Source: an uncultured virus (IMG/VR IMGVR_UViG_3300038423_000131) (lineage: Duplodnaviria; Heunggongvirae; Uroviricota; Caudoviricetes). From it: a stretch of DNA of 30,546 nucleotides. The notes under the pieces are model-generated. The model made no database searches. It saw nothing but the letters and a program-made list of their open reading frames with translations, and was not told where the DNA came from. Below are positions 7,392 to 30,252 of this stretch, one piece after another (position 1 is the stretch's first letter; each line of letters opens with the position of its first letter). The stretch lies in IMG/VR virus record IMGVR_UViG_3300038423_000131; one strand, 5' to 3'. Position numbers and translations under genes: made by a program.

Positions 7392-7877
7392 ATGAATAGA
7401 AAAGAATATCTTCAAAATTATAGATTAACACATAAAAAAGAAATAAGTGATTATAGATTAAAAAATATATATAAAATCCGAGAAAATAATCGAAGATGGC
7501 GAAAAACTCATAAGGAAGAAATTAAACTAAAAGAACAAAAAAATTATTTAGACAATAAAGAAGAACGATTAAAATCTTCTAAATTACAATATCAAAAAAT
7601 GAAGGAAAAGGTTACTAAAGAAGTAATTAAATATTATAGTAGTGGTACAATGGCTTGTGCTAATCCATTCAATGAACATAAAGAACCATACACCAATATT
7701 TTGGCATTAACATTAGACCATATTGAAGGTGGTGGGCATAAACATAGAAATAATATAAAACGAAGTGGTGCACATTTTTATAGATACTTACAAAAACAAG
7801 GTTATCCAGATGGTTATAGAGTATTGTGTATGAATTGTCAATTTATAAAATTTAAAACAGAGGATGTTAAAAAGTGA
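7392..7877 (+). CDS. free-standing HNH-type endonuclease
   Basis: Basic helical N-terminus, then LTLDHIEGGG...GYPDGYRVLCMNC; own TATA at 7351. Confidence 0.75.
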   Translation: MNRKEYLQNYRLTHKKEISDYRLKNIYKIRENNRRWRKTHKEEIKLKEQKNYLDNKEERLKSSKLQYQKMKEKVTKEVIKYYSSGTMACANPFNEHKEPYTNILALTLDHIEGGGHKHRNNIKRSGAHFYRYLQKQGYPDGYRVLCMNCQFIKFKTEDVKK

Positions 7878-15718: not shown

Positions 15719-15778
15719 CTTAATTTTTCGATTTATTTAAGTAATTATTTAACGAGTTTATTAACATTTTTTGGTTAT

Positions 15779-15794
15779 TTAAGTAATTACTTAA
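15779..15794. promoter_or_regulatory. 16-bp perfect palindrome TTAAGTAATTACTTAA (type copy of a recurring operator-like site)
   Basis: Perfect copies at 15779, 23170 and 24867; near copies at 787, 10439, 15737, 15877, 22190 and 29732. All lie next to TATA-like boxes. Confidence 0.75.
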
Positions 15795-15928
15795 AACCGC
15801 AAGGTTTATATATGATGATGTATATACGAGCAGGTACGTTGTGAACCTAAAATTGGCGTGTGTCTTAGGGCAAAATTTAAGTAACTATTTAATCAAAAAC
15901 TTTATATAGGTGATATTGATTATTATAA

Positions 15929-16666
15929 TTGAATATTGGTGAAAATATGTTTAGGTTAACTCCATTTAATTATAACAGGCATTATGATTTAATCGCAAGA
16001 TTGTTACTGAACCGTTGTCCTGAATTAGACCTTAATGGAATAGAGAAACAATTGCTTATATCCTGTAAAGACGACTTAGCTCTTTATATAATGTATTTAA
16101 GAGAGAATCATTTAGTTACTGATGATATGTTTATGGAATACTTTACTACTTTTGTGCTTAATTTCGATTTGGGAATAGAACATTTGGTTCAACCGATTTT
16201 AACTGCTGAACAAGAAGTTCGATATGATATTGATTGTGAGAAGTTTGCGGATACACTTGTTGATGAATGGTGGAAGAAATTTCAAGTACGCACAGAAGTT
16301 AAGTTAGTTAAGCCAGATATTCCACCTATGGTTATGGGTAATATGAGAATGAGAAATATGTTTACACCTGATGAAATGGATGACCTGCACTTTTATGTTG
16401 CAATGATATTAATAAGAAATGGTGAACGATGCTTTATTGATTTAATGATTGGTAATCTTGTTGCTGGAACAATAATGATGAGAGTTAGCCCAAACAAAAC
16501 ATCATTTAATCAACAAGATAAACTCCAGTTAACTCAAGCTATAGGATTTGAAGCTAAAAGAATGACTGAACGAAGTGGACCACTAATTTTTCTTTTTGCG
16601 GATAAGAATTACTACAGAGCACATATGAGGGAATGGAGAGAACCATCACATGGGCAAATACTGTAA
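15929..16666 (+). CDS. hypothetical protein (likely start ATG15947)
   Basis: Long ORF after palindrome plus TATA at 15901 and a GGTGA RBS. Confidence 0.75.
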   Translation: MNIGENMFRLTPFNYNRHYDLIARLLLNRCPELDLNGIEKQLLISCKDDLALYIMYLRENHLVTDDMFMEYFTTFVLNFDLGIEHLVQPILTAEQEVRYDIDCEKFADTLVDEWWKKFQVRTEVKLVKPDIPPMVMGNMRMRNMFTPDEMDDLHFYVAMILIRNGERCFIDLMIGNLVAGTIMMRVSPNKTSFNQQDKLQLTQAIGFEAKRMTERSGPLIFLFADKNYYRAHMREWREPSHGQIL

Positions 16667-17141: not shown

Positions 17142-17690
17142 ATGGTATATAAAGATAAAAATAAAGAACGTGAATCTCGGAGAAATTGGCGTTTGAAAAA
17201 TAAAGATAGAATTAATGCCAAACGAAGAGAAAGAAGTTTAAATGATAAAGAATATAGAAATGAAATTAACAAAAAACAAACGGAATGGAGAAATACACAT
17301 TTAGAAGATTATCGTGGTTATTATAGAAATTATTATCGTAAAAATCATATTAAAGTTTTAAAAAGAGTGGCAAATTGGCAAAAAGAATATCGTAAAAAAA
17401 TTAAAATATATTTAATGGATATACTTGGTAATAAATGCAATAAATGCGGAATAATTGGGGGTGACGAAAATATTTGCATTTTTGAATTCCATCACATAAA
17501 TGAAGAAAATGCGTGGGGAAGAAACAATAATATAAGGGTAAAAACATTAAGAAAATGGTTTGATGAAAATTCTATTCCAGATGATGTTATTTTATTATGT
17601 TCAAACTGTCACAAATTGGAACACTATAAACCACATACCGAAACACTTATAAATAACAAAGATATTATAACTAATGATTTGGTGAATTAG
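17142..17690 (+). CDS. free-standing HNH endonuclease
   Basis: K/R-rich N-terminus, LGNKCNKCG...FEFHHI...IPDDVILLCSNCH; TATA at 17075. Confidence 0.85.
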   Translation: MVYKDKNKERESRRNWRLKNKDRINAKRRERSLNDKEYRNEINKKQTEWRNTHLEDYRGYYRNYYRKNHIKVLKRVANWQKEYRKKIKIYLMDILGNKCNKCGIIGGDENICIFEFHHINEENAWGRNNNIRVKTLRKWFDENSIPDDVILLCSNCHKLEHYKPHTETLINNKDIITNDLVN

Positions 17691-19235: not shown

Positions 19236-19469
19236 ATGAAATGTCCAAAATGTGGTTCAAACGAAATAAAACTAATAGTAGGTAATTTATATAGGTGTTT
19301 TTCTTGCGGTCACAAGTTTAATAATTTTGAACCAATTAAATGTCCAAGACAAATCAAAGAAGAAGAAAACGAAGACCAAAGCGTTTATAGTGACGACCCA
19401 AAAGATACGCAAGAAGACGATATGGAAGAGGATTTAGGCTTCTTAGATGATAACGATATGGGTTGGTAA
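19236..19469 (+). CDS. Zn-ribbon protein with acidic C-terminal tail
   Basis: MKCPKCGS...YRCFSCGHKF, then a D/E-rich tail; TATA at about 19193. Confidence 0.7.
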   Translation: MKCPKCGSNEIKLIVGNLYRCFSCGHKFNNFEPIKCPRQIKEEENEDQSVYSDDPKDTQEDDMEEDLGFLDDNDMGW

Positions 19470-19662
19470 TTTGAGCAAGAATTTAAAAATACAAATAAAA
19501 AGAGTTTGCCCTAAATGCCAGAAAGTATTTTATTGCGATAATAGTTGTGCTTCTATTAATAAGAATTGTTTATGCGCTAAATGTTTTAAGGGTGCAGGTA
19601 ATACAGGTTTAGTCGTTGTAAACAACTTAATAGTAGGCAACCATTTATTTTTAGGTGACTAA
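19447..19662 (+). CDS. Cys-rich Zn-finger protein
   Basis: CPKCQKVFYC...CLCAKC. Confidence 0.55.
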   Translation: MITIWVGNLSKNLKIQIKRVCPKCQKVFYCDNSCASINKNCLCAKCFKGAGNTGLVVVNNLIVGNHLFLGD

Positions 19663-19749
19663 AATAACAACTACTAAATGCTGTGATAAATGCGGTGTTG
19701 AACATAACATTAAGGAAATACATATAGTTTGGATACCCAAGAACCATAG

Positions 19750-19902
19750 TCACAGTTGGCTGTGTGAGGGTTGTTGGTTAGTTGTAGAGTAAAAGAACCT
19801 TACATTGCATTTTGGGCATTTATAAACGATAATATTAGGGATAGGTTTTGAGTTATCTATATCCATTTTACATTGGCAGTAATGACATATATCATCTGGC
19901 AT
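19750..19902 (-). CDS. Zn-ribbon microprotein (MPDDICHYC...CPKC)
   Basis: Two CxxC pairs; minus-strand TATA at about 19926-19937 places the start at 19902. Confidence 0.55.
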   Translation of the reverse strand: MPDDICHYCQCKMDIDNSKPIPNIIVYKCPKCNVRFFYSTTNQQPSHSQL

Positions 19903-20786: not shown

Positions 20787-21533
20787 ATGAAACACATAAA
20801 AATAAATGCTTTTGATTGCCCAGACGGATATATGAAGACATTAAGGGCAATAGATAAAGAAGGAATAGAATTTAAAGTTGGCTATGGTTCAGAGCAAACT
20901 TTAACCAAAAAAATTAACTTTACATTAGAAATTGAGCATCCAGAAATGAGACCATTACTTCATGAGAAAGCCCCAAATGATTTAACTTATCTTAATTGGT
21001 ATGCAGGCATATATCTTTGGTATCCAGAGCCAGACATGGCAGAATATACTTATGGCAACCGAATGCGTAAGCCAGTTGACCAATTACAAAATGTTATTGA
21101 TAGGTTTAAACAAGAGAAGTTTGACCGCCAATGTACAGTTATTATTCGAAGACCAGAAGACATAATTAAGGGTAAATGCAAAGACCCACCATGCTTAACG
21201 ATGATTGACTTCGAAATCATAGAAGATAAACTTTGTGCAACAGCTTACTTCCGTAGTTGGGATGCTTACGCTGGATTGCCATGCAACATAGCAGGCATAC
21301 AAATGATGGTAGAATTCATGGCTTCTGAGATTGGTGTACCATCTGGCAAACTTATTTTTCATAGTAAGAATACACACATTTATGAGAGACAATTCAAATT
21401 AGTTAGGGAGATGCTTGACCCTGAAATTATGAAAGAAAGATATATTAAAGTTGAGTCTCAATGCCCAAAATGCGGTACATTAAGAGATGTTGATGAACTA
21501 TGCCCGAAGTGTGGTGTAAAGAAAGATGTATAA
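20787..21533 (+). CDS. thyA: thymidylate synthase, archaeal ThyA type, with a C-terminal Zn ribbon
   Basis: YTYGNR, DQL, catalytic PPC, FRSWD, GLPCN, HIYE; tail CPKCG...CPKCG. Confidence 0.85.
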   Translation: MKHIKINAFDCPDGYMKTLRAIDKEGIEFKVGYGSEQTLTKKINFTLEIEHPEMRPLLHEKAPNDLTYLNWYAGIYLWYPEPDMAEYTYGNRMRKPVDQLQNVIDRFKQEKFDRQCTVIIRRPEDIIKGKCKDPPCLTMIDFEIIEDKLCATAYFRSWDAYAGLPCNIAGIQMMVEFMASEIGVPSGKLIFHSKNTHIYERQFKLVREMLDPEIMKERYIKVESQCPKCGTLRDVDELCPKCGVKKDV

Positions 21534-21672
21534 AGTTTATGATTGTAAAGTTTGTAATGGTAACGGTTATTTAATCATTAAAAACTCAAAATGTAATGGT
21601 AAATATCGGTTTGAAAGAGTTAAATGTGAAGAATGCAATGGTTCTGGTATTATAAGGAAAATAATTAATTAA
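21526..21672 (+). CDS. DnaJ-type CxxCxGxG Zn-finger microprotein (48 aa), not in the ORF track
   Basis: CKVCNGNG...CEECNGSG. Confidence 0.65.
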   Translation: MYKVYDCKVCNGNGYLIIKNSKCNGKYRFERVKCEECNGSGIIRKIIN

Positions 21673-22174
21673 AATTATTTTTATGTTCCCGTTCTTCTTG
21701 AGCAGTTATTACTCTATGGCAATTTGAACATAATAATTCAACATCATTTGGAATTTTATTATTTTTATACCATTTCACCATTAAACTTCTTGTAATTTTA
21801 TTCTTTTCTTCATCATTTCTACCATTTATATGATGAAAATCATAAATTTCTGGATGGTCTAAATCTTTTATATTACATTTTTTACATTTATTACCTAATT
21901 GTTCAATACACCACATTTTAATTTTCAAAAAGTTCTCTCTGGATTTTCGGTATATTGTATCATAATTTTCTTTGCGCTTTAATTTAATTTCTTCCTTGTG
22001 ATTTTCTCTATATCTTTTATTCCCTAAGTTGTGTTCTAATATATGATTTTTTGCATAATTTTTTCTATATTCAGGATGTTCTTTAGCCCATTTCTTACTC
22101 TGTTCTCTATGTTTCTCAGGATTTTTCTTTCGCCATTCCTTAACTTTATCATAAGTCGTTGTCAAATTTATCAC
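21665..22174 (-). CDS. free-standing HNH endonuclease, opposite strand to its neighbours
   Basis: LGNKCKKC...IYDFHHING...IPNDVELLCSNCHR; minus-strand TATA at 22199-22206. Confidence 0.85.
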   Translation of the reverse strand: MINLTTTYDKVKEWRKKNPEKHREQSKKWAKEHPEYRKNYAKNHILEHNLGNKRYRENHKEEIKLKRKENYDTIYRKSRENFLKIKMWCIEQLGNKCKKCNIKDLDHPEIYDFHHINGRNDEEKNKITRSLMVKWYKNNKIPNDVELLCSNCHRVITAQEEREHKNNFN

Positions 22175-22856: not shown

Positions 22857-23206
22857 ACTCCCCTATAGTCAAAACTTTTTAAACTTTAGCAAAAACCCAA
22901 AATTAAACAGAAGACTAATAAAATAAACTTTTTATTATATTTTTTCCAATAATTGAATTAGATTCTGACTCTGTTACTAAGAAACTAAGAAATAAAAATA
23001 ATGTGATATTATAATTCATATTATAATGTTTAAGATTTTATGACATTATCATTTGAAATAAAATTTAGGAATTGTTTTGTTGAAAAAGGTCGTATGGGAA
23101 CCGCCGCCACACAAAAATTTTGGAGTGTGTGAATTTTTAAAGGTGATATTTTAATGAGTATTAAACTACTTAAGTAATTACTTAAACACAAACATTATAA
23201 GCAACG

Positions 23207-23686: not shown

Positions 23687-23836
23687 AAATGTCAAATTTT
23701 TTTTAGCCCATTTTTTGGTAATTGGGGCTATCTAAAGCGTAGAAACCATATATGATAAATGACCGAAATATATATTAATAGGTAAGATATAACTTGTTTG
23801 TTAGTGACAAAATGAATAGACAATTAACATTAAACG

Positions 23837-24649
23837 GTGGTGAAAAAATTAATGAAAAGTAAATTATATGGTACTATACTTCTAATAGCATTAATGATGA
23901 TGGCAGTTGTTATGATGAGTAATGTTAATGCTTGCACACAATCAATAACTTTATCTCCAAACTCTGGATTTTCTTGCGTTACAATAGTTGGAAGTGACTT
24001 TGATAATAACAAAGTTATAACTATCTATTGGAATGATGTTTCGCAACCTTTTGTTAGTGCAACTGGAAAAACTGATAGTTCTGGAAACTTTGTAGTAATC
24101 ATTTCTATACCTACAACTACGGCTGGCTTATACACAATAAAAGCAACAGTTAATGGCGATTCAGCATCGGCAACATTCACAGTTATTAGTATGGTAGGCG
24201 CAACGGGTGCAACTGGACAGACAGGAGCTACAGGCTCACAAGGCGAACAAGGTGCTCAAGGTATTCAAGGAGAGCAAGGTATTCAGGGTGCTACAGGTTT
24301 AACAGGTGCAGTAGGACACGTTGGAAAGACAGGTCTTCAAGGAATTGCAGGAGTAAATGGTACAAATGGAACTAACGGAACAAACGGCAAAGATGGTGCA
24401 ACAGGATTAACAGGTGCTATGGGTGCAACTGGTAGTCAAGGGGCTACTGGCGCAACTGGTCAAAGTGGTGCTACTGGTGCGACTGGTTCTCAAGGTGCTA
24501 TTGGTAGTCAAGGAAAAGCTGGAACTAATGGTACAGATGGCATTAATGGTGCAGGTTTTCCACTATGGCTCTCAATCGTTTTAGTTGTTACTGCCATAGC
24601 AGTAGTGACTTTAAGCGCACTTGCATATAGAAAAGTCAAAAGAAGTTAA
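23837..24649 (+). CDS. secreted, C-terminally membrane-anchored collagen-like protein (signal peptide, Ig-like domain, 40 Gly-X-Y triplets, TM helix, basic tail)
   Basis: N-terminal KK plus hydrophobic stretch plus VNA cleavage site; beta-rich domain; uninterrupted [33 protein letters not shown]. Confidence 0.85.
24197..24556 (+). repeat. collagen Gly-X-Y coding repeat, 40 triplets
   Basis: Counted from the translation, GAT GAT GQT ... GIN GAG; contains no Pro. Confidence 0.9.
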
Positions 24650-24692
24650 GGGATTTTAATTCCCAAACCAAATCTTTTTTATTTTTATTTTT
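24650..24692 (+). terminator. short hairpin plus long T-rich tract after the collagen gene
   Basis: GGGA-TTTTAAT-TCCC, then TTTTTTATTTTTATTTTT. Confidence 0.55.
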
Positions 24693-24923
24693 CCGAAATT
24701 ATTCGAAGTTGGATTCGTTAAATATTAAATAAAAATTGATGGACTTTTACCATAGCGACTTTATGTTTTTAACGAATTCTGACGGGTTATTTCGTTTTCC
24801 ATAAAAAGACCATAGTTTTTGACCATCAGTTTCGAAGTAGGGTTTAAAATATAAAGCTGGGTAATTTTAAGTAATTACTTAAGCAAAAACTTTATTAGTT
24901 ACTGCCTGTATTAATAATGATGA

Positions 24924-25331
24924 TTGAAATTGCTAATAAATCCTAAAGCCCCAAAATATGTAGTTGAACACCCAGAATTATATCAAAATTCAGGGTGGGA
25001 TATGGATGATAGTAAATGCCGATTTTCGGTAAAGCATAAAGTTGGCGACATAATTAAATGTTTAATTATAAGTAATAGACACGATGATAACAGTTATATT
25101 GATAAAGATAGCGAAATATCCTATTTTATTGGTGAAGTAATGGGTTACTACAGTGTAGGTTATGGCATAATATCAATAAAAATAATTTATTTAAAAGATA
25201 AAAATAATAGTTTCTACAAAGTTGGCGACTATCATAGTCTTCATCATGGTTGGGTTGACAATGCTGAGAATCCCAAACTTTTAAATGACCTTAAAAAAAT
25301 AAGAGGAAAAGAGGTTTTCATTTTCAGATGA
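24924..25331 (+). CDS. FxFR-tail operon gene 1 (ends KEVFIFR)
   Basis: First ORF after palindrome 24867 and TATA 24891. Confidence 0.7.
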   Translation: MKLLINPKAPKYVVEHPELYQNSGWDMDDSKCRFSVKHKVGDIIKCLIISNRHDDNSYIDKDSEISYFIGEVMGYYSVGYGIISIKIIYLKDKNNSFYKVGDYHSLHHGWVDNAENPKLLNDLKKIRGKEVFIFR

Positions 25332-25570
25332 TTAGGGTTAAATGTAAAAGTTGCGGTAAAACATTTTTATGTAATGCAGACGGCGTTATGACTTTTAGCG
25401 GAAAAATAGTTAAATTTAAATGCTTTGATGAAGATGATTGGGGTGGCATTAAAATTGAAAAAACTACAGAGAGAAAATGTTATTGTAAAGAATGCACAAC
25501 TAAAAATGAACCTTATAATAAACAACGAGTTAAACGGTGTTATAGTGGAGAGGGGTTTGTCTTTAGATGA
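25328..25570 (+). CDS. FxFR-tail operon gene 2, Zn finger (ends GEGFVFR)
   Basis: ATGA-coupled; CKSC, CYCKEC. Confidence 0.75.
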   Translation: MIRVKCKSCGKTFLCNADGVMTFSGKIVKFKCFDEDDWGGIKIEKTTERKCYCKECTTKNEPYNKQRVKRCYSGEGFVFR

Positions 25571-25803
25571 GTGATATAAAACTAATTTGCCCTTACTGTA
25601 AGACACCTTTAGTATCTTATGATAAATATTGTTATTGGTGTGAATGTCATCCTTTAAAAAATTATAAATCACTTTCAGTTAGAAAATTCTCATGGCAATA
25701 TAATTATAAAACTAAATCTTGGCTTTATTTAGAGGCAGAAAATTCGGGTTGGATAGAAGTTAACGAAAAACCACAACCAAAGCAGGTGTTCATATTTAGA
25801 TGA
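25567..25803 (+). CDS. FxFR-tail operon gene 3, Zn finger (ends KQVFIFR)
   Basis: ATGA-coupled; CPYC, CECH. Confidence 0.75.
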   Translation: MSDIKLICPYCKTPLVSYDKYCYWCECHPLKNYKSLSVRKFSWQYNYKTKSWLYLEAENSGWIEVNEKPQPKQVFIFR

Positions 25804-26102
25804 TTAAATGTTGTAGGTGCGGTGTAGAATTCCATATTGATTTAAATTATAAATATGGAAAGATTGATTTGGAAAATGGAAATTATATCCAGTCTATGAT
25901 TACTCATAAAGGTAAAACTTATTATTGTTGCAAAGACTGCGATAAAATATGGGATAAATTTTACTCTAAAAAAGTAGATATAAGTACCCTTGCAGATATA
26001 TATAATAAATGGAATAATTGGCGTAACATCTTTTTTAATTATTTCTTGAAACTTAAAGATGTTCCAGATAAAGAAACTAAACATACATTTATATTCAGGT
26101 GA
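25800..26102 (+). CDS. FxFR-tail operon gene 4, TRASH-like Zn finger (ends KHTFIFR)
   Basis: ATGA-coupled; CCRCG...GKTYYCCKDC. Confidence 0.75.
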   Translation: MIKCCRCGVEFHIDLNYKYGKIDLENGNYIQSMITHKGKTYYCCKDCDKIWDKFYSKKVDISTLADIYNKWNNWRNIFFNYFLKLKDVPDKETKHTFIFR

Positions 26103-26365
26103 TATGGATGTTTATTGTTTGCCCCATTTGTAAGTCACGGTTAATTCTTTCAGAATGTACAAGAAAAATTAATTACACTCACGATTATTACAGATGCAAA
26201 TGCAAGTCATATAATAGTTGTGGCAATTGGATATATTTACATGATGGAAGCGAATATTTAGTTAGAAGTGGTGGCAAAAGATGGGGTTACTTAGGTCGTA
26301 ATGAACCAACTAAATATTTTAACGATAAAGAAATGAAGATTAAGGAAACTTTTATATTCAGGTGA
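26099..26365 (+). CDS. FxFR-tail operon gene 5, Zn ribbon (ends KETFIFR)
   Basis: GTGA-coupled; CPIC, CKC...C. Confidence 0.75.
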   Translation: MIWMFIVCPICKSRLILSECTRKINYTHDYYRCKCKSYNSCGNWIYLHDGSEYLVRSGGKRWGYLGRNEPTKYFNDKEMKIKETFIFR

Positions 26366-26422
26366 CTAATGGTTAAAAGAGGTAAAGTTTATATAGGAGA
26401 ACTCCATACTTAATTATATAAA

Positions 26423-26851
26423 GTGATTGATTTGAAAAACAACAGAATTGAATTAAATACTTACGACCATAATTTCGGGTTTGTTTTGCCAATGAAAACT
26501 AATGTGTTTTGGGAACAACAAACTAATGGCGTATGTTGCAACCATGTGCAAATTGAAGGCGTATTTGTACCATTACCAATGGATGGCGACATAGGCAAGA
26601 TTCTTGGTAGAATTTCAGGTGCTAATTATGACTTTAATGAACCTGCCGTTTGTCAAGGCTGGGCTGATTTGCATAAATATCTTAAAAAGTATGAACAATT
26701 AGAGTTTGAAGAAGTAAAAGCACCACAAGGTCAGCCAGAAAACCAAGAAGGATTAGTTTGGGTTAAAATTACACGCTGGCAGAGTTTCATTGGACACGGC
26801 TTCGGCATGGTTGGTAAGACAGTTTGTTTGTTCTATCCAAATTGCGATTAG
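26423..26851 (+). CDS. hypothetical protein, DUF6210-like from recalled motifs
   Basis: QQTNGVCCNH..IEGVFVPL ... EGLVWV ... YPNCD; own TATA at about 26388. Confidence 0.5.
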   Translation: MIDLKNNRIELNTYDHNFGFVLPMKTNVFWEQQTNGVCCNHVQIEGVFVPLPMDGDIGKILGRISGANYDFNEPAVCQGWADLHKYLKKYEQLEFEEVKAPQGQPENQEGLVWVKITRWQSFIGHGFGMVGKTVCLFYPNCD

Positions 26852-26994
26852 GTGAAAAATATGTGTCAATATCGAGTTGGGTTAGTTAAAAATTGTCGAA
26901 AATGCAAGTCTTCAATACGCAAAAATTGCCCTTTACGCAAAAAACAAAAAAATAAAGAATACTTTGACACCGTGAAAAAAGGTGAATCTAAGCA

Positions 26995-27225
26995 ATGACA
27001 GAACAAAAAACACTAAAACAATACTTAGCAGATAATTCAATTTATCTGTCAGATGAAATTCTAAAAAGAATAGAAAAGGCAGTAAAATCATATAACAAAG
27101 AATGGTTAACACAAAAACGCCAAGAAAATAGTAAAAGTAGTTTAGAAATAAAACGCAATGTCGTCAATTTTTTCGGTAAACATTGGCTTGATGCAGATGA
27201 ACTTTTAGAGGATGTAGAAAAATGA
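26995..27225 (+). CDS. hypothetical protein
   Basis: GGTGA RBS, ATGA overlaps at both ends. Confidence 0.6.
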   Translation: MTEQKTLKQYLADNSIYLSDEILKRIEKAVKSYNKEWLTQKRQENSKSSLEIKRNVVNFFGKHWLDADELLEDVEK

Positions 27226-27345
27226 CCTGCAAAAAATCTGATAGATGCGCTAACTATAAAATTGGAAATTGGGCGTGTGACCACACAGGCGAAGAATATT
27301 GCCAAAATTTCACGGAGAAACAAACAGCAAGTTTGGTGTATTAAA

Positions 27346-28269
27346 ATGACCGAAACAGCCATAAATGCCGATAAACTTAAAGATATGTTAGCGCAAGTTT
27401 TAGCTAATGCACAACATGATTTAGATATTAAAGCCTTTGATAAACCGATAGATACAACCATGCAAGCATTAGTTATAAAGCCAAATGATTTAACTGTAAA
27501 AAAGACTTTGAAGGGGTTTTTAACAGGAACATTTCTCGATAAACTTTATTTTAACGAACAATCTGAACCTTTGAATGGTTTACCTTCTTGCGGTCAAATA
27601 GGCATAGTTGGATTAAGTGGTGTTGGGAAATCTTTGCTTGCACAGGAAATTCTTCTCAGAACCGCTAATGAAAGTAAAGGTGTGGTCTTTATAACGAGTG
27701 AAGATATATTCAATTCAGACAACGAAAGATTTGACCTTCAATCAAGACTAATGGAAAAATCTAAAAGTCTTGGGTTAGATTGGCAAAAGATAAAAGATAA
27801 TCTTTTTGTTTTAGATTGTATAACTCACGGTCAACTTTCCGATTTTGAAACTCTTATTGGCGTATATCGAAGTTTAGTTGAAGACCCCAAAAACAACATT
27901 AAACTTTTAGTGATTGATTCATTGACCTTACTTGAATCTTATCGCCAAAATCTTAAACATAGGGTTTTGCAACTGTCACGGTTTAACCAATTAAAAGGAA
28001 TTACGGGTTTATATGTCTGCCAACGAAGCGAAGAAGAAACTGACAAATTTTCAATTAGCGGTGGTGTCGGGGTGGCTCACAACTTAGACAGCGTTATTTG
28101 TATTGACTTCGCCAAAGCTATGGGGCAAATGAAAGACGAACTTCAAAAGAAACAATGGGAAAATACACATTTCGCAAGAATACTCTCTTGTAGATTATGT
28201 AGTTTTAATAGAAAATATATAGAAATGGAAATTACCCCAAATGGTTTTCTAAAAGCCATAAATAAATAA
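27346..28269 (+). CDS. single-domain KaiC/RecA-superfamily ATPase (archaeal KaiC-domain type)
   Basis: Walker A GLSGVGKS, VVFITSE, Walker B LLVIDS, GGVGVAHNLD, RILSCR. ATG27346 follows a GGTG RBS (track start is 27262). Confidence 0.85.
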   Translation: MTETAINADKLKDMLAQVLANAQHDLDIKAFDKPIDTTMQALVIKPNDLTVKKTLKGFLTGTFLDKLYFNEQSEPLNGLPSCGQIGIVGLSGVGKSLLAQEILLRTANESKGVVFITSEDIFNSDNERFDLQSRLMEKSKSLGLDWQKIKDNLFVLDCITHGQLSDFETLIGVYRSLVEDPKNNIKLLVIDSLTLLESYRQNLKHRVLQLSRFNQLKGITGLYVCQRSEEETDKFSISGGVGVAHNLDSVICIDFAKAMGQMKDELQKKQWENTHFARILSCRLCSFNRKYIEMEITPNGFLKAINK

Positions 28270-28634
28270 CTTTAGTTTTTTTTATTAAATAAAACCATAG
28301 TCATTAAATAGCCATAACCTTTATTAGCACCTTTGTTATATTATATTGTTGATAAGTATGACCGAACAAATAATTGGGTATGTTGAAACATGGAGTAGAA
28401 TCTACGCCATAATCGTTAAAGATAAAGAAGTAGTTGTGCAAGAAACCGAATTGCAAAGTAGTGATGTTTAAAATGCCACCTAATGATGGAATGCGATATA
28501 CTTGGGATTCCTATATTGGAAAATGGGTATGTCAAGAGCGTGATGGTGTTAAAGACAATCACGTTTAGGTGATTAATGGTGTTTAAGCACAACATTTATA
28601 TCCTTGTTTACACTATCTTAGGTGTTGATAAAAA

Positions 28635-29525: not shown

Positions 29526-29796
29526 AAAATATATAAATATATATAAAGTGTTAGGTATTAAATATATAGTGTGTAATGAGTTATATAGTTAGGAAGCCCC
29601 TAAACACAAACAAGGGGAAAGAAATGTTGTGCATAGATGCAAACTATGGAGAATTAATTTAATAGTTTAAATTTTTTGTGGTAGTTAAAAAGTCCATCAA
29701 TTTAAAAAGCCAAAAATTTTTTTTGATAATTTTAAGCAATTACTTAAATACTTTGACCACCGAAAGACTTAAATAGCCGATTATTATTATTGATAA

Positions 29797-30252
29797 TTGG
29801 CGATAAAAATGAGAAAACATCATGTTGGTGAATTTTATGAAAATAAAGAACAGAAACAGCAACGATATGCTGAAACTAAAGAACAAAGACATCAACGTTA
29901 TATAGCGAATTATGAAAGTGAGAAAGCAATAAAATATAGAGAAAATCATCGTGAATATTATAGGAATTATCATAGAGAATATGGGCAAAAATTAAAAAGG
30001 TGGGCTGTTGATAAGTTAGGCAGAAAATGTCACGACTGTGGATTAGTAACAGAACACGATTGTATTTATGACTTCCATCATTTAGGCGAAGATTCTTGGT
30101 CTAAGTTACAACATACAAATAAAGTAACAACCGAAAAAATTAAAGTGTTGCGTAAGTGGGAAAAAGAAGATTATATACCTAATGATATAATTTTAGTCTG
30201 TTCTAATTGTCATAGATTAAGAAATAATGGAGATAAGCCAGAAGATTTATAA
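29797..30252 (+). CDS. free-standing HNH endonuclease (likely start ATG29809)
   Basis: LGRKCHDCG...IYDFHHL...IPNDIILVCSNCHR; TATA at 29768. Confidence 0.85.
   Translation: MAIKMRKHHVGEFYENKEQKQQRYAETKEQRHQRYIANYESEKAIKYRENHREYYRNYHREYGQKLKRWAVDKLGRKCHDCGLVTEHDCIYDFHHLGEDSWSKLQHTNKVTTEKIKVLRKWEKEDYIPNDIILVCSNCHRLRNNGDKPEDL

Follow-up and report, generated by a model that had tools for sequence, protein, structure and literature searches.

Five consecutive genes in an uncultured virus record (IMG/VR IMGVR_UViG_3300038423_000131; Caudoviricetes) encode small proteins that all end in F-[IV]-F-R immediately before a TGA stop codon. The window analyzed here is the whole stretch of 30,546 nucleotides, given 5′ to 3′ on one strand. 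We interpret the ending, with a probability of roughly 55%, as a lineage-specific C-terminal short linear motif that serves as a recognition or docking tag, or as a degron, read by one putative receptor. The motif is non-random, is conserved in relatives and is disordered in the model of the first protein of the array. A preliminary description made from the sequence alone had reported the five open reading frames (ORFs), T1 to T5, and had proposed a docking-tag system, possibly one that engages the proteasome. The observation was confirmed and extended and the tag reading was supported in general, but its proteasome version was not. The genes and their tails are as follows:

24930..25331, + strand: T1, 133 aa (135 aa from TTG 24924), predicted SH3-like beta-barrel body and helix, then EVFIFR and stop
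25328..25570, + strand: T2, 80 aa, CxxC...CxxC, ends GEGFVFR and stop; its ATG overlaps the T1 stop (ATGA)
25567..25803, + strand: T3, 78 aa, CPxC zinc-ribbon-like, Pro-rich linker, ends KQVFIFR and stop; T5 paralogue
25800..26102, + strand: T4, 100 aa, CxxC...CxxC, ends KHTFIFR and stop
26108..26365, + strand: T5, 85 aa (88 aa from GTG 26099), CPxC zinc-ribbon-like, ends KETFIFR and stop; last gene of the array
25317..25331, + strand: tail 1, codons and stop TTC ATT TTC AGA TGA
25556..25570, + strand: tail 2, codons and stop TTT GTC TTT AGA TGA
25789..25803, + strand: tail 3, codons and stop TTC ATA TTT AGA TGA
26088..26102, + strand: tail 4, codons and stop TTT ATA TTC AGG TGA
26351..26365, + strand: tail 5, codons and stop TTT ATA TTC AGG TGA (15/15 nt identical to tail 4)

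All five endings (KEVFIFR in T1) and the tail codons were as first reported. The T1 start is probably TTG 24930 because orthologues begin ML/VxxPK. Successive cistrons are joined by four 4-nt stop/start overlaps, ATGA at the T1/T2, T2/T3 and T3/T4 junctions and GTGA at T4/T5, where the alternative is an AGGTGAT standing 5 nt 5′ of the T5 ATG at 26108; from this arrangement we infer translational coupling of the array. No gene overlaps the 3′ end of T5.

Six-frame translation gave 443 stop-to-stop ORFs (≥30 aa). F[IV]FR occurred in them five times, always as the C terminus of T1 to T5, in agreement with the earlier remark that no other protein of the window carries this tail. The nucleotide pattern TTYNNNTTYAGRTGA matched 6 times, against 0.11 expected from 100 shuffles. 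With the amino-acid usage of the window (F 0.039, R 0.046) an F.FR ending should arise by chance in ∼7 × 10−5 of ORFs, and none was found in 3,300 ORFs (≥40 aa) from 113 unrelated viral loci chosen for holding TTTAGGTGATAATATG. The counts against shuffles and unrelated loci therefore exclude chance. Intact tails number eight in total, five in the window and three in a contig (L001) that carries a second array. Across these eight and five further lineages of T1 orthologues, positions −4 (F), −2 (F) and −1 (R) are invariant and position −3 is I, V or Q; among the eight, −3 is I or V in six and Q in two (FQFR twice, both in L001). A stop codon follows the Arg directly in every copy, which places the motif at the extreme C terminus with a free carboxylate.

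The proteins that carry the tail are mostly dissimilar. With the last seven residues removed, nine of the ten pairs among T1 to T5 scored at background level, as expected from the original statement that the bodies are unrelated; that statement failed for T3 and T5, which are similar (score 53, z 4.3, 0/300 shuffles). T2 to T5 have a CxxC knuckle at residues 4 to 11 and a second, Y-x-C-x-x-C-like knuckle at differing spacing, and against curated zinc-ribbon models their best Pfam E values were 0.02 to 0.9, none at cutoff. No tail protein matched Pfam, PHROGs or NCBIfam, Atlas look-ups for them gave unnamed clusters only (T4 belonged to no named family), and a word-based search with T5 returned only T5 itself. 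The set of bodies thus comprises a pair of paralogues, perhaps a loosely defined Cys4 class, and at least one fold that is clearly distinct.

The AlphaFold (AF2) model of T1 was confident (predicted local distance difference test [pLDDT] 82.3, predicted template modeling score 0.78). In it, residues 131 to 135 follow a helix (117 to 127) and have pLDDT values below 50, so that the tail is predicted to be free and unstructured, in line with the proposed design of a variable body and a constant tail. The T1 core weakly resembles SH3-like barrels of the Tudor/KOW/chromo type (1y71, 5zcj, 3lgf and 2f5k), with VIA-align Z scores of 5.3 or less that lie below the reliable level of the tool, and Foldseek returned no match to the model at E ≤ 0.001. 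The T5 model was too poor to use (pLDDT 54.9). The other tails sit after hydrophilic or Pro-containing linkers (e.g., EKPQPKQ, DVPDKETKH, VIPPLQ). Disorder of the T1 tail and these linkers together indicate the anatomy of a short linear motif and not that of a core strand.

Conservation of the tail was followed most fully in T1. An exhaustive, profile-free search of 1.84 billion representatives yielded only seven clusters, which together with a word-based profile search and cluster look-ups define eight T1 lineages, compared as protein sequences. Six of the eight end in F[IV]FR (EVFIFR, KVFIFR, KVFVFR, KAFVFR, RAFVFR and KAFVFR), at 41 to 77% mutual identity and 41 to 50% identity to T1. Their alignment has 135 columns, of which 34 are invariant; only 2 of the 34 lie within the 25 columns before the tail, and the last four columns read F, I/V, F, R. 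The two most distant homologues (P0026, seen on contigs of up to 147.6 kb, and P0027; 34 to 35% identical to T1) end in VSFD and WRIA and have no tail, which indicates that the tail is an add-on tied to one clade and does not belong to the T1 fold. A variant of T2 with 84% identity likewise differs at most positions from residue 58 to the tail but keeps FVFR. The earlier argument for selection on the peptide, as a tail on dissimilar bodies, is upheld by such homologues, which retain the tail while the adjacent sequence diverges.

Other features of the T1 family were also recorded. Its N terminus is conserved as M-[LV]-x-[NH]-P-K-[TA]-P (window 24930 to 24960; P and K invariant in the five tail-bearing lineages with a complete N terminus) and may be a second short motif. 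One T1 form (locus L004, protein P0022; window 25050 to 25217), seen in a metagenome contig and a four-member protein cluster, lacks 60 residues between two KVGD repeats with frame and tail intact; the deletion takes away most of the predicted barrel. In three of four runs T1 from 25187 onward is preceded, within one contig, by at least 255 nt that do not match the window, and the 30 visible letters 5′ of this junction read ...WLYCYQSFRD in the T1 frame, so a different head seems to be fused to the last 47 residues of T1 and its tail. IMG/VR scans with the KaiC-like protein of the window, the T1 alignment and protein P0026 found no relative, a metagenome scan gave only four loci, all of the same strain complex, and the match in a genome scan, 11 residues in an alphaproteobacterial metagenome-assembled genome, was rejected as spurious. 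Searches of phage and plasmid records (tblastn/blastn) returned nothing for T1 or P0026, and for neighboring genes only collagen-repeat or distant topoisomerase-like matches.

At the nucleotide level the eight intact tails vary at the wobble base of both Phe codons and of the Arg codon and throughout the middle codon (ATT, ATA, GTC, CAA). TTC makes up 5 of the 10 Phe codons in window tails versus 78 of 324 elsewhere in the window (TTT 246, TTC 78), a mix which indicates that synonymous sites are free to vary. At eight further ATGA/GTGA overlaps in the window the last residue is K (five times), R, T or Q, with no FxF, so that an overlap fixes only the last base of the last codon. The pattern TTYNNNTTY was absent 5′ of AGGTGA at all seven such sites ahead of genes outside the arrays (461, 14677, 15908, 23141, 26850, 26980 and 28567), and T5 retains its tail without any gene overlapping its stop. 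RNA folding of the eight junctions revealed no common structure (z −1.4 to +2.1). F-x-F therefore appears to be under selection as a peptide. The caveat raised earlier, that the final Arg is partly imposed by the overlap, held only in part: ATGA fixes no more than the third base, as the eight other overlaps show, while in the AGGTGA junctions the Arg codon lies within the Shine-Dalgarno box.

A second array of tail genes was found in L001, which leaves the window at the following site:

28558..28573, + strand: junction-like ATCACGTTTAGGTGAT, where the L001 match to the window ends (at 28573) and the second FxFR array follows

L001 is 100% identical to window positions 23762 to 28573 and diverges directly after TTTAGGTGAT. 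Its 942 new nucleotides (L001 4813 to 5754) hold three genes of 64, 76 and 132 aa that end in PFQFR, HFQFR and TFIFR with TGA stops, followed by the start of another CPxC protein, and the second-array proteins occur on contigs of up to 16.5 kb. In one run (X23) one contig also breaks at 28573 and other contigs continue in the window form. Array content thus differs between co-occurring strains while the tail persists, the pattern that the preliminary description had proposed to look for in relatives.

We suggest that the tag, carried on a linker at the C terminus of at least eight small proteins (among them an SH3-like barrel and several of the Cys4 zinc-ribbon-like type) encoded by co-regulated, translationally coupled accessory gene arrays, would act through an extended F-x-F strand that puts both Phe rings on one face. 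The two Phe residues (i, i+2), the terminal Arg and the carboxylate would insert into one receptor pocket, with charge contacts from Arg and carboxylate. All carriers would be brought to the same partner, either for recruitment as adaptors or for turnover via a shared degron; the binding, the single receptor and the direction of effect are what we infer from the observed tails. A more specific form of this proposal can be offered only tentatively, at less than even odds: F-x-F-R-COOH may be the element's own C-terminal address label on changing zinc-ribbon and SH3-like heads that all fit a single ring-shaped machine of host or virus. Conceivable candidates would be the proteasome, an AAA+ unfoldase, a chaperone, a clamp and the KaiC-like ATPase of the element itself.

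Known systems resemble this arrangement in different respects. Encapsulin cargo-loading peptides (PMC8346489) are nearest in logic: unrelated cargo proteins share one short C-terminal peptide, set behind a flexible linker, through which they dock to one partner. A short C-terminal peptide and flexible linker on unrelated proteins are present here as well. However, encapsulin systems have an HK97-fold shell, and the window yielded neither such a shell gene nor a capsid gene: Pfam searches of 56 window proteins and PHROGs searches of 35 gave no capsid or encapsulin family, the window being 30.5 kb of an element found on contigs of up to 92.5 kb. Furthermore, FxFR carriers are small Cys-rich proteins in a replication/accessory region, whereas encapsulin cargo proteins are enzymes. 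The encapsulin cargo-peptide consensus is Gly/Ser/Leu-rich. Reading of the PDZ or TPR type is nearest in geometry to F-x-F. In class II PDZ ligands (Phi-x-Phi-COOH), EEVD-TPR and PTS1-Pex5 pairs the receptor reads the last three to five residues and the carboxylate, and a PDZ ligand joins as an extra beta-strand in which every second side chain is buried. The register differs, with Phi at −3 and −1 relative to the terminal Arg here versus −2 and 0. At E ≤ 0.01 the window proteins matched no PDZ or TPR domain, and we know of no C-terminal reading of this type in archaeal mobile elements. Accessory or anti-defense arrays of phages and archaeal viruses share with T1 to T5 small, orphan, fast-changing genes, a palindromic operator and strain-variable content. 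To our knowledge, a shared C-terminal tail has not been described in accessory gene arrays, and a literature search in a limited collection returned none in archaeal viruses.

Several observations weigh against a tag. Read mapping in four peat or wetland runs found no variants within the array, and a usable model was obtained for T1 alone. The stop codon is TGA in 9 of 9 copies of the tail sequence, compared to 17 of 52 other genes, and Arg is encoded by AGR in 9 of 9, whereas AGR makes up ∼70% in the window; the last two positions (R-stop) are therefore confounded with start-overlap or Shine-Dalgarno signals. The identity of tails 4 and 5 at 15 of 15 nucleotides means that tails may descend from one duplicated junction and not from independent events, and the junctions probably share ancestry. 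The remaining objection concerns a gene upstream of the array and the ORF that follows it:

19447..19662, + strand: gene X, 71 aa, Cys-rich; TTTATTTTTAGGTGA at 19644-19658, out of frame
19655..19792, + strand: 45-aa CCxxC...CxxC ORF, starting at a GTG inside the AGGTGA of gene X

The called frame of gene X ends HLFLGD before its stop, and an alternative frame reads KQLNSRQPFIFR and stop over the last 18 codons. Gene X, the sole member of its cluster, has this form on 20 contigs, and in 20 of 20 it keeps the 15 tail nucleotides perfectly and out of frame. According to the preliminary description, the tag idea would fail if homologues kept the nucleotides but not the amino acids; this was found once, in gene X. 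The 3′ end of gene X is probably a decayed tail. A programmed −1 frameshift restoring FIFR in gene X was considered and rejected, as the sole slippery-like run comes too late for the 18-codon alternative reading. The 45-aa ORF has an array-like junction architecture and an N terminus that is T4-like by eye.

These points bear most directly on a rival in which the junction itself is the conserved unit: a DNA or RNA cassette, TTY NNN TTY AGR TGA (TAATATG), would combine a ribosome-binding/start-overlap signal with microhomology for cassette swapping, leaving FxFR as a functionless scar. AGGTGA(T) is a Shine-Dalgarno box used elsewhere in the window, the TGA and AGR codons are uniform in all nine copies, gene X holds the nucleotides and loses the peptide, and tails 4 and 5 are identical. 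L001 leaves the window sequence exactly after TTTAGGTGAT where its second array starts, the X23 contig breaks at the same base, and the gene in front of this box at 28573 terminates in a different frame. On the other hand, variable sites are exactly the synonymous ones and the middle codon, which is a signature of coding selection, TTYNNNTTY is missing from the eight other overlaps and the seven other Shine-Dalgarno sites ahead of genes, and the exactly shared core of 6 to 9 nt is short for a recombination site. In addition, T1 orthologues swap I and V (a first-base change) and the residue remains hydrophobic, and the junctions have no shared RNA fold. We therefore regard a functionless scar as rather unlikely.

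Alternatively, the proteins could be subunits of a hetero-oligomer in which a common C-terminal strand zips with other tails or with a neighboring subunit, the T1 barrel being a possible peptide reader and coupling giving equal amounts. The 4-nt overlaps, the beta-strand pattern of F-x-F, the paralogy of T3 and T5, the shared CxxC knuckle at the start of T2 to T5 and the SH3/Tudor/chromo-like barrel of T1, with its invariant GYYxxGY hairpin, all fit such a complex. Against this, identical four-residue tails could not specify an ordered assembly, and array content varies (second array present or absent; T1 form with an internal deletion), which would not be usual in an obligate complex. The monomer model of T1 shows no docking of the tail on the barrel, and the GYYxxGY hairpin persists in homologues without a tail. 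We consider this explanation unlikely.

The tail might also act in cis as a nascent peptide, with F-x-F-R in the exit tunnel and UGA slowing termination and tuning re-initiation on the next cistron. Short hydrophobic nascent motifs are known to stall ribosomes in bacterial leader peptides; here, selection acts on the peptide, yet every copy lies at a TGA within the next start or Shine-Dalgarno box, and such an effect would not depend on the protein body. However, eight other coupled junctions in the window manage without the tail, T5 has no coupled downstream gene, and at two junctions (A1 and A3) the stop and the next ATG do not overlap, the ATG standing 4 nt past the stop. We know of no termination mechanism of this sort in archaea and find the idea very unlikely.

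In the proposed proteasome version, the tail would be a Phe variant of HbYX (hydrophobic-Tyr-X) that engages alpha-ring pockets of the host's 20S particle and thereby serves activation, blocking or delivery. This version is highly improbable: the tail is extreme C-terminal with an aromatic −2 residue and free carboxylate, but its invariant residues are −4, −2 and −1 instead of −3 and −2, the "Hb" residue (−3) is Q in 2 of 8 intact tails, Tyr is never present in these or the five further orthologue lineages, and the i/i+2 pattern suggests an extended strand and not an HbYX hook. PAN of M. jannaschii ends in LYR. Like FxFR, HbYX tails (PAN, Rpt2/3/5, PA200/Blm10, Cdc48) are very short, sit at the extreme C terminus and have an aromatic −2 residue, one type of pocket serving several proteins; they need a free carboxylate and allow a basic last residue, both of which FxFR fits by sequence. 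The defining residues of HbYX are a hydrophobic one at −3 and Tyr at −2, whereas FxFR has I, V or Q at −3, an invariant Phe at −4 (its conserved hydrophobic position), Arg at −1 and no Tyr at the penultimate position. According to PMC10349882, the Tyr hydroxyl of HbYX in a solved complex bonds G19, the carboxylate forms a salt bridge with K66 and the Hb group occupies a hydrophobic pocket. In some HbYX activators either Phe or Tyr is functional as the penultimate residue (PMC8907193), so the absence of Tyr is not in itself incompatible with HbYX-like behavior. A complex prediction of T1 with two Thermoplasma 20S alpha subunits, run without controls, scored 0.00 and is no evidence either way.

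Short C-terminal tags with one receptor organize major machines, including proteasome activators, chaperone cofactors, and organelle and nanocompartment targeting. No such tag is known to us from plasmids or viruses of archaea, and hardly any of their small orphan proteins have been explained. A tag on at least eight proteins offers a direct experimental handle on their common hub and on the host process that is manipulated, and, if the receptor is conserved, a very short portable tag would be useful for archaeal cell biology. If the address-label reading is true, the system would be a modular adaptor or degron system new to archaea and their viruses; if the tail is instead a junction scar, it would document a cassette-exchange mechanism that builds accessory gene arrays.

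The array belongs to a stretch that reads as an uncultured AT-rich archaeal virus- or plasmid-like element. G+C content is 29 to 38% across the window and almost all genes are on the + strand, with B recognition element (BRE)/TATA-like boxes and AGGTGA(T) Shine-Dalgarno boxes ahead of them. The stretch was found in 24 runs labeled as peat or wetland metagenomes, and the T3, T4 and T5 proteins also occur on a 92.5-kb contig. Encoded proteins include the C-terminal part of MCM, an RNA-ligase-family protein, a dUTPase-like protein, NUDIX, a topoisomerase-like protein, several HNH endonucleases, glycosyltransferases and a collagen-repeat protein; a KaiC/RadA-like ATPase (27262 to 28269) lies between the two FxFR arrays. 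No capsid or terminase was detected in the 30.5-kb window. Sites that flank the array are as follows:

24867..24882, + strand: perfect 16-nt palindrome TTAAGTAATTACTTAA, just 5′ of the operon promoter; probable operator
24885..24897, + strand: BRE/TATA-like element (AAAAAC TTTATTA), ∼33 nt 5′ of the T1 start; putative archaeal promoter
26384..26395, + strand: next promoter-like element (AAAG TTTATATA), ahead of the gene at 26423

The palindrome, the TATA-like element and the next promoter-like element were all read where the preliminary description had put them, and a promoter role for the latter two is suggested by their sequence. TTAAGTAATTACTTAA matched the window 12 times at ≤3 mismatches (1.22 expected), with perfect copies at 15779, 23170 and 24867 and one-mismatch copies at 15737 and 29732, all ahead of gene blocks. 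The palindrome precedes at least four gene blocks (15737 to 15794, 15877 to 15892, 23170 to 23185, 24867 to 24882 and 29732 to 29747), and three copies cluster 5′ of the gene at 15929. These copies look like the operator set of one regulator, and their recurrence suggests that the five-gene array is part of a small regulon. No regulator gene or known anti-defense family was identified in the window (PADLOC was not searched). Sigma-70 promoter matches were not above background (10 versus 12.8 expected from shuffles), and Rfam and tRNA scans gave no matches.

Elsewhere in the window, positions 20787 to 21533 encode a thymidylate-synthase-like protein with a C-terminal zinc ribbon (Pfam Zn_ribbon_3, E = 1.2 × 10−5), an unusual fusion. 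The collagen-repeat (G-x-y) protein at 23837 to 24649 has an N-terminal signal-like segment and a C-terminal hydrophobic anchor and matches phage tail-fiber families through its repeats only; one run showed a 132-nt skip within these repeats (24270 to 24403). Four ORFs (7392 to 7877, 17142 to 17690, 21665 to 22174 and 29797 to 30252) may be homing endonucleases: three match HNH-endonuclease PHROGs and that at 7392 to 7877 matches none. The three members on the + strand have Lys/Arg/Asn-rich repeated N-terminal segments; the fourth (21665 to 22174) is on the minus strand in a skew-poor stretch. Finally, ∼110 nt at 27007 to 27118, inside a 76-aa gene (26995 to 27225), were matched by one contig per run in 4 of 4 runs, at a depth of 81 to 483 compared to ∼2 to 6 elsewhere, with the same eight differences each time and unlike flanks. 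A much more abundant genome, possibly that of the host or of another element, may share this piece.

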